Shown here: piece after piece, positions 33,621 to 34,256 of the stretch
Position numbering within the stretch: position 1 is the first letter of the stretch
How the letters are laid out: each line of letters begins with the position of its first letter
Assembly: GCF_053078305.1 (NCBI RefSeq)
Contig: NZ_CP166879.1
Strand: one strand, 5' to 3'
Length of the DNA stretch: 64,000 bases
Translations under genes and position numbers: made by a program
The notes under the pieces: model-generated
The model's database searches: none
Told to the model about the DNA's origin: nothing
Seen by the model: the letters and a program-made list of their open reading frames with translations, nothing else

Positions 33621-34003
33621 TCTTCTGAATCACCGGGCGACAAAATATAACTGAGTTACAAATAAGTACCAGTCGAATGAGTATTATATTAAGAATTTTG
33701 GGGTATCGCTGATACAACCAGAAAGCAATGCTAGCGCAATATTATAGGGCCAGCAATTGAGATTATTAGCAAAAGCATGTTAAGAATTAATTACCGAATT
33801 TATATATTAATTATGATAAGGCAATGAGCTATTTTTGATAGTAAAAATAAAACAAGTTGATTTGATATATTAAATGAACAAATTAATCTTGATGGCAGTC
33901 TGATTATTGGTGAAGTTTATAGTCAGTTTTTTTCGCCAGTGGTTAAAGAAATAGAATAGTCGTATAAAAAAGGGTGTTCTGGGGCGAGTAAAACAACATC
34001 TTC

Positions 34004-34190
34004 ACCTTAATGGCGATACAGTTGGCTGAGAGTCCGCAGGGGGGCAAATCACCTGCAAATAAACACGGCGCATACTGGCGCGAATATCGCGGATGCGTTC
34101 GAGGACAGAAGAACCGACAGGCGGATTCTTCAGTCGCTCATCGTCCATCACAAAACCTTTGATCAGGTATTCCTGAAGCCGATTGAATAT
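34004..34190 (-). pseudogene. Relic of a rhuM-like gene (selC-island associated) at the 3' side of tRNA-Sec
   Basis: minus-strand translation ...LQEYLIKGFVMDDERLKNPPVGSSVLERIRDIRASMRRVYLQVI... resembles the conserved core of RhuM-family proteins, but homology starts and ends abruptly with no full-length ORF. Confidence 0.4.
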
Positions 34191-34256
34191 TGAGCAGTAG
34201 AAAATCTCTGGATTGACAGTATTACAAGGGGTTGGAGAATGTCAGAAGAGGCATTT

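Follow-up and report, generated by a model that had tools for sequence, protein, structure and literature searches.

The 3' side of the tRNA-Sec gene selC in the window (the whole 64,000-nucleotide stretch of DNA analysed here) carries a short remnant of a rhuM gene, and this relic is the known E. coli K-12 pseudogene yicT, an ordinary and already annotated feature of the selC-setC interval. Very probably an ancestral rhuM gene adjoined selC and was destroyed in situ in the lineage of the window and K-12. The fragment that is left is in all likelihood a non-functional pseudogene, with no integrase, attachment (att) repeat or intact open reading frame (ORF), and nothing active.

The selC gene (anticodon UCA) is located at 34257-34351 on the minus strand, is intact with its CCA 3' end at 34257, and is collinear with K-12 b3658; it is the sole tRNA called by ARAGORN, in agreement with Rfam (RF01852, 83.8 bits). 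Since selC is on the minus strand, positions 33621-34256 form its 3' side, and they are exactly the selC-setC intergenic region, up to the setC start codon at 33620. The setC gene (32436-33620, minus strand; an ORF with a match to Pfam MFS_1) encodes an MFS sugar efflux transporter; yicL is found at 31402-32325 on the minus strand, and yicJ (34587-36026) and yicI (36036-38354) are on the plus strand. The gene order yicL-setC-selC-yicJ-yicI is that of E. coli K-12, and the comparison with the K-12 flank, which had been suggested as a check, gave the same arrangement: the 7001 bp from 30573 to 37573 align with MG1655 in collinear order, 98.5% identical and gap-free. An initial reading made from the sequence only (the sequence-only reading) had described the selC att site as unoccupied, and so it is: no integrase ORF or tblastn match was detected between selC and yicL in the window, and no island genes lie between selC and setC. 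Direct repeats of the selC 3' end, which the same reading had proposed to look for, were searched in the window with a 26-mer and a 16-mer (up to 3 mismatches) and by a repeat search, and none was present outside selC itself; local alignment for such a repeat in the window gave a score of 18, against a shuffle-null maximum of 22.

The description as unoccupied holds for the selC att site but not for its surroundings, because an integrase-less eip/eilA/eaeX 'selC-B' island is only ~3.5 kb off, and the selC neighbourhood is thus not island-free. This type III effector island (eip/eilA/eaeX(iatC), ~11500-29800) is found beyond setC-yicL-nlpA-yicS; one of its genes, of huge size, encodes an inverse-autotransporter adhesin and contains a tandem array of Big repeats (period about 290 bp, ~14.7-20.6 kb). 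The island is AT-rich in places (30-33% GC at 22.9-27.1 kb), and the same eip/eilA/eaeX effector genes are found after yicS in E. albertii. In the yicI-yicH interval (~38650-45590) there is a ~7-kb sugar cluster which, according to the annotation of the closest strain, encodes a BglG-type antiterminator, PTS IIA/IIB/IIC components, two aldolases, a ROK protein and a lyxose/mannose isomerase. In K-12, yicH presumably comes directly after yicI, so the cluster looks like another variable segment.

The relic itself lies at 34017-34179 on the minus strand (163 bp), as delimited by Pfam, tblastn, HMM, existing annotations and alignment. It begins 78 nt past the CCA end of selC, a location at a tRNA 3' end of the kind expected for an island remnant, and corresponds to codons ~120-185 of the 345-codon RhuM; its minus-strand frame reads ..FNRLQEYLIKGFVMDDERLKNPPVGSSVLERIRDIRASMRRVYLQV.. 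and its GC content is 52.8%. The translated fragment matches Pfam PF13310 (Virulence_RhuM) with E=8.5e-13 and 48.6 bits, above the gathering cut-off of 33.7, the match covering positions 50-98 only of the 252 in the profile. When the intact 345-aa E. coli RhuM was used as a tblastn query against the window, aa 121-185 were aligned at 68% identity (E=5e-22), and a six-frame scan with a custom RhuM HMM, built from nine intact homologues, gave E=1.9e-21 over 34050-34181. No NCBIfam match was obtained for the fragment. It is unlikely that the similarity would be lost under composition correction, as three independent methods argue against it. The truncated RhuM-like coding fragment put forward in the sequence-only reading is thereby confirmed; the similarity, which had been sought over 33990-34250, is significant, but its true limits are the narrower ones given above. 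There is no complete RhuM domain in an intact ORF: the N-terminal 119 and the C-terminal ~160 codons are missing, stop codons are present in the flanks, and the relic has two internal deletions, one of 24 bp in frame (removing VPDYFDEM) and one of 9 bp. A 49-codon ORF is found at 34002-34151.

The K-12 MG1655 pseudogene yicT (b4653), located between selC and setC, maps to 34017-34148 of the window, and the two are orthologous by position and by sequence. PGAP annotates 162 bp (34017-34178) as 'rhuM: RhuM family protein, incomplete, missing N-terminus and C-terminus', and this partial-rhuM label is present in nearly all matching genomes. The window locus is 99.5-99.7% identical to that of strains ES5 and 1504D004. 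Among 5426 complete E. coli genomes, 3618 contain at least 80% of the 636 bp at 90-99% identity, and the relic junctions are the same across K-12, O104:H4, 55989 and CE10-type strains; 2472 of the 5426 have the fully unoccupied K-12-like arrangement. The locus is polymorphic: besides the 3618 genomes with relic and setC, an allele with an intact rhuM ("allele 2") was found in 844 of the 5426 at 80% coverage or more, and both relic and setC are missing in O157:H7 and others. The view of the interval as a strain-specific scar therefore fails, the same junctions being shared by 3618 of 5426 genomes. The sequence-only reading had set an identical sequence in all E. coli, hence an ancestral one, against a scar; the first is largely what was found, and the relic is both ancestral and a scar. 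As a sign of an island, composition is atypical in the non-RhuM part only (31.6% GC, against 52.8% for the relic).

A comparison with island-bearing strains, also suggested beforehand, showed that islands enter upstream of the relic and leave it intact. In strain NDM3, one example of many, an island occupies selC, and relic and setC are intact behind a ~24-nt selC repeat; in EAEC 042, a 21-bp selC repeat is followed by the 'backbone' genes setC, yicL and nlpA (PMC7058095). In O157:H7 the relic and most of setC are missing at the distal LEE junction. Because a C-terminal remnant of setC is retained at that junction, O157:H7 derives from the relic-plus-setC backbone via further deletion. In O157:H7 strain SS TX 754-1, setC is a 174-bp C-terminal pseudogene (locus L008, 10986-11159) and the yicT relic is gone.

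How the copy in the window decayed can be read from its junctions. The 77 nt next to selC (34180-34256, minus strand) are the remnant of an old leader, recognised by blastn and a four-way alignment in which they are homologous to the first ~85 nt of that leader. Its first 23 nt (34234-34256) are common to all alleles, and the rest is homologous to two other leaders: the longer one found ahead of a rhuM start codon in Escherichia sp. E1V33, and the E. albertii leader that follows a degenerate repeat of the selC 3' end (selC'). The RNA fold of the leader and selC trailer is unremarkable (z=0.59). Alignments with intact rhuM and with the E. albertii and E1V33 leaders place the 5' deletion junction at 34176-34179 (minus strand), where the leader (..TCGGCTT|TA..) and rhuM at codon ~119/120 (..GACGCTT|CAGG..) both have GCTT (minus strand). 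The deletion took ~40 nt of leader together with codons 1-119, roughly 400 bp, and the shared tetranucleotide fits a microhomology-mediated event. The distal breakpoint zone (34017-34049, minus strand) was delimited by blastn and alignment: nucleotide homology to the rhuM of strain HH97 and of allele 2 ends at 34050, and the RhuM-like translation (..ADSQPTV) fades by 34017. A sharing of the 5' deletion junction by E. albertii was considered and dropped, as the four-way alignment shows the leader of that species running to a mutated rhuM start.

In the simplest reading, the ancestor of Escherichia had a rhuM gene adjoining the 3' end of selC, in the same orientation and separated from it by a leader of ~125 nt. 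A ~400-bp deletion between the GCTT microhomologies would have joined the leader to codon ~120, the 24-bp and 9-bp deletions inside rhuM would also belong to the window/K-12 lineage, and loss of the 3' half of rhuM would have left the relic abutting the AT-rich upstream region of setC. The same old copy decayed separately in other Escherichia lineages, newer copies presumably coming on selC-integrating elements. Separate decay in these lineages is among the points that the data establish, together with the identity of the fragment, its deletion junctions, the synteny with intact rhuM and the frequency in the population. The sequence-only reading had seen here a former selC-associated element that was deleted. 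The association is upheld to the extent that the relic stems from a rhuM gene directly 3' of selC and that the rhuM genes of relatives are flanked by selC repeats or integrase; the clean removal of an element is not, the copy having decayed in place through deletions of ~400, 24 and 9 bp and loss of its 3' half.

The 5' junction and the 24-bp deletion recur in strain HH97, which is 98.9% identical over 34050-34700, and past the relic part it continues into the 3' half of the allele-2 rhuM with its selC' repeat. An evolutionary intermediate was considered, but the sharp switch from relic-like to allele-2-like sequence favours recombination; HH97 is more likely a relic/allele-2 recombinant than a true intermediate. 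HH97 also bears on the age of the relic. Along one 75-bp stretch, identity between the relic and intact E. coli rhuM reaches 96%, which is high for an old neutral relic and speaks against an ancestral copy; the high identity may reflect gene conversion by incoming copies. One could go further and suppose that the relic is younger, made or refreshed by recombination with an incoming rhuM element and reflecting recent loss of an island in an E. coli sublineage, and the HH97 hybrid (5' part from the relic, 3' part from allele 2) demonstrates that such recombination happens. We consider this improbable. The same junctions recur, at 93-99% identity, in the 3618 genomes, from K-12, O104:H4 and 55989 to the CE10-type strains; the leader is of the old Escherichia type and not the 52-nt leader of current elements; and the 75-bp stretch is intrinsically conserved, as shown by its identity of 88-89% in Morganella and Pseudescherichia vulneris. 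The preferred reading remains an ancestral copy decayed in situ.

Between the relic and setC the base composition changes. The sequence-only reading had described the whole interval of ~640 bp as very AT-rich; this is true of the setC-proximal ~370 bp (33621-33990), whose GC content of 31.6% falls in the lowest 0.5% of 370-bp windows in the 64 kb, but not of the relic, and the interval as a whole (33621-34256) has 38.2% GC. The selC-proximal 266 bp have 47.4% GC. Within the AT-rich half no further RhuM traces were found by tblastn (E up to 10) or the six-frame HMM scan, and the block gave neither a coding nor an RNA signal. The block is single-copy in E. coli, with no paralogue, and it has no plasmid homologues, the full-length 'plasmid' matches being chromosome-sized or large chromosomal-fragment records (1.0-4.9 Mb). 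It barely aligns with E. albertii, the similarity being confined to one 24-nt segment (33751-33774), which scores 36 where the null maximum is 34, and to the 13 nt preceding the setC start. Its core at 33634-33964 (30.2% GC) corresponds by position to a K-12 'promoter island', a match converted from the selC coordinates of U00096.2 and checked by its fit within the 636-bp interval. The promoter islands of K-12 were described by Panyukov & Ozoline (2013), and the one at selC/setC is listed as 331 bp long, H-NS-bound in all surveyed studies and tied to a predicted foreign gene (PMC3661553, Table 1); the label is a functional one from K-12 ChIP and prediction data. With neither RhuM nor island homology detectable in it, and given its position at a promoter island, the proposal that this AT-rich DNA is a scar is unproven, and by analogy with K-12 it would be better described as a silenced upstream region of setC.

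Could the relic or the AT-rich DNA have been kept for a function, be it as the source of a YicT peptide, in processing or terminating selC transcripts at their 3' end, or in the regulation of setC? The 49-codon ORF at 34002-34151, the 95-99% conservation of the region in most E. coli, the reported H-NS-bound promoter island (PMC3661553) and a published survey that lists strong Rho-dependent terminators upstream of selC and one associated with setC (PMC9160355) can all be cited for it. Yet that conservation is at the level of neutral intergenic DNA within the species, PGAP records internal stops in the copies of some strains, and O157:H7 and the allele-2 strains live without the whole segment. 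RNA family, fold and terminator signals are likewise all at chance: the Rfam scan of the region gave tRNA-Sec only, the promoter and terminator scans were at chance level, and a simple sigma-70 scan found 3 sites against 2.9 expected (its criterion differs from that of PMC3661553). We regard retention for function as very improbable and keep to a non-functional pseudogene.

The history of the site is recorded more fully in relatives that carry an intact rhuM. In allele 2 (844 genomes) the order is selC, a 52-nt leader, an intact 345-codon rhuM (protein WP_001280586.1), a selC' repeat, a 165-aa ORF (hyp165, unannotated) and yicL; this arrangement stands in place of relic and setC and is without an integrase. 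The selC' repeat, ~110 bp after the rhuM stop, is a degenerate selC 3' end plus 12 nt of trailer (28/32 nt; alignment score 45 against a shuffle maximum of 24). Beyond it is a second, older and frameshifted RhuM relic covering aa 170-237 (sum E=1e-11), so that a single tRNA gene here has two successive generations of rhuM stacked behind it; the older relic was located at ~6005-6171 of locus L004 (E. coli AVS0969) and at offsets 955-1152 after selC in locus L007. Strain Z0117EC0054 has a further layer, in the order selC, P4-like satellite, selC'', rhuM, selC', old relic and yicL, with a perfect 21-nt selC repeat between the P4-like satellite and rhuM. The E. albertii locus runs from selC through a truncated integrase, intact rhuM, selC', ~125 nt of old leader, a mutated rhuM start and setC to yicL. 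The truncated integrase (aa 110-355) is 83% identical to the O157 selC integrase, the selC' repeat has the same 4-nt TTCC gap as allele 2, and SetC is 90% identical in amino acid sequence to that of the window. The setC gene is thus present at selC in E. albertii and absent in E. coli allele 2. Escherichia sp. E1V33 retains only the old leader and rhuM codons 1-14. Between this remnant and yicL, on the opposite strand and in place of setC/hyp165, E1V33 has an unrelated 404-aa cysteine-rich ORF (locus L107, 3200-4414). By inspection it looks like a flagellin lysine-methylase (FliB)-like protein, and it adds a third type of cargo to the site. In an ENA metagenome contig (L130, 1-2493), fruB directly precedes a SetC-like gene, which is 81% identical but diverges at its N-terminus, and yicL-nlpA-yicS come next; this contig was set aside as uninformative, being either a setB/setC recombination (a chromosomal rearrangement) or an assembly chimera.

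When species-representative genomes were scanned with the 26-mer of the selC 3' end, at least 120 loci were listed, with no Salmonella or E. fergusonii loci among the matches listed. Among these matches, 91 Enterobacterales species loci had at least 1.5 kb of sequence 3' of selC, and the first feature within 1.5 kb of selC was an intact RhuM gene in 5 of the 91, a RhuM fragment in 7 (12/91 for RhuM altogether), an integrase in 31 and neither RhuM nor integrase in 48. All RhuM matches at selC, among the matches listed, are on the strand of selC. Several of the shorter loci (<1.5 kb) carry RhuM fragments as well, and SetC was found adjoining selC in none of the at least 120 other-species loci listed. 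In Pseudescherichia vulneris, a selC repeat (19/20 nt; score 35 against a null maximum of 24) occurs ~110 bp after rhuM. The identity of RhuM proteins does not track host kinship (Erwinia MAG 85% and Enterobacter 79% identical). Relics in other genera, e.g. one with aa 113-138 fused to 324-345, mirror yicT: Klebsiella sp. BIGb0407 has a yicT-like internal RhuM fragment at offsets 96-231 after selC (locus L020), and Atlantibacter has independently internally deleted RhuM relics directly 3' of selC (loci L127/L128).

These comparisons bear on whether the old copy was ever mobile. Since the window contains no selC repeat and no integrase trace, a mobile origin of this copy rests on analogy with the newer ones. 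The distal selC repeat missing from the window does accompany the intact rhuM of E. coli allele 2, of P. vulneris and of E. albertii, and a rhuM gene that in relatives lies between selC repeats or by a truncated integrase fits delivery by selC-integrating elements. By this analogy we infer that the old rhuM copy was originally delivered by a selC-specific integrative element. It might instead have been a resident, vertically inherited neighbour of selC that decayed in place, no mobile element having been involved for this copy. Around the relic there is indeed no att repeat, integrase or other island gene; remnants of the old leader and rhuM occupy the same position in three Escherichia lineages, the relic has a host-like GC content, and adjacency of selC and rhuM without an integrase is widespread. 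Against such residence stand the selC repeats that flank newer rhuM copies in allele 2 and P. vulneris, the truncated selC integrase next to that of E. albertii, the two generations stacked in allele 2, and cross-genus RhuM identities (those of the Erwinia MAG and Enterobacter) that do not follow the hosts. We think it unlikely, if the least so of the alternatives weighed here, and prefer delivery of the old copy by an element.

Intact E. coli RhuM matches the PADLOC model PDC-S05 (E=2.8e-173), and a preprint (bioRxiv 10.1101/2024.09.26.614923) reports that in E. coli B a PDC-S05 (RhuM-domain) gene lowers the plating of T7 and T5 ~1000-fold. Type I restriction loci, too, are places where rhuM genes occur more often than elsewhere (PMC9881135). 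No solved structure with sequence similarity to intact RhuM was found, and the fragment in the window is too short to function as PDC-S05. RhuM-family genes are probably anti-phage genes that turn over at the selC site. More tentatively, and with somewhat less than even probability in our estimation, rhuM, as a candidate single-gene anti-phage module (PDC-S05), might be the cargo of a family of minimal selC-targeting islets, redelivered across Enterobacterales, with older copies pushed outward and stacked fossils left behind. Each arrival would displace the previous copy, which then would decay to give selC, rhuM2, selC', delta-rhuM1; the DNA 3' of selC would preserve the turnover of defence genes in layers, the oldest still legible one being the yicT of the window; and the integrase-less selC-rhuM-selC' unit might be mobilised in trans by resident P4-type or LEE-type selC integrases.

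The relic itself is of little importance, being a long-annotated pseudogene with no sign of function, and it serves mainly to mark the 'K-12-type' selC-setC backbone when island insertions are to be recognised. Of some interest is the comparative by-product, namely the one-orientation linkage of selC and rhuM in many Enterobacterales, with newer copies that carry att repeats or integrase fragments, and it constitutes a modest lead. If repeated site-specific delivery of a defence gene is true, the 'virulence' label of the Salmonella Pathogenicity Island SPI-3 rhuM deserves a second look, and the selC flank would offer a tractable natural archive of how defence genes are gained and decay.

Among known systems, SPI-3 of Salmonella has a rhuM gene of the same family (PF13310) and with the same tRNA-Sec association as the relic in the window. 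The gene order of SPI-3 reportedly given by Blanc-Potard et al. in 1999 is selC-sugR-rhuM. In a published list for S. Typhimurium 14028, SPI-3 is inserted at tRNA-selC and includes rhuM (PMC3680342). SPI-3 is described as a 17-kb multi-gene island with an intact rhuM, whereas 19% of rhuM and no other SPI-3 gene is left in the window. The LEE (with its P4-type integrase), CP4-like islands, P4-like satellites and the EAEC 'selC-A' island use the same selC 3' att site, with direct repeats of 21-24 nt; the window is without any such selC-integrated island or satellite, and these elements insert between selC and the relic, which they leave untouched. Cis-mobilisable elements (CIMEs), a concept from work on integrative and conjugative elements of Streptococcus, are att-flanked remnants of integrative elements that lack a recombinase. 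Like them, the selC-rhuM-selC' unit (1.2 kb) found in allele 2 and in P. vulneris is att-flanked and integrase-less, its mobility being putative, and the allele-2 unit also accretes with incoming elements (selC, P4-like, selC'', rhuM, selC'). The window copy differs in having no distal repeat, and so fails even the structural definition of a CIME. Its counterpart is K-12 yicT, with which it shares the locus and the junctions, collinear and with 0 gaps, and from which it differs only by divergence (~97.5% identity to K-12-like strains).
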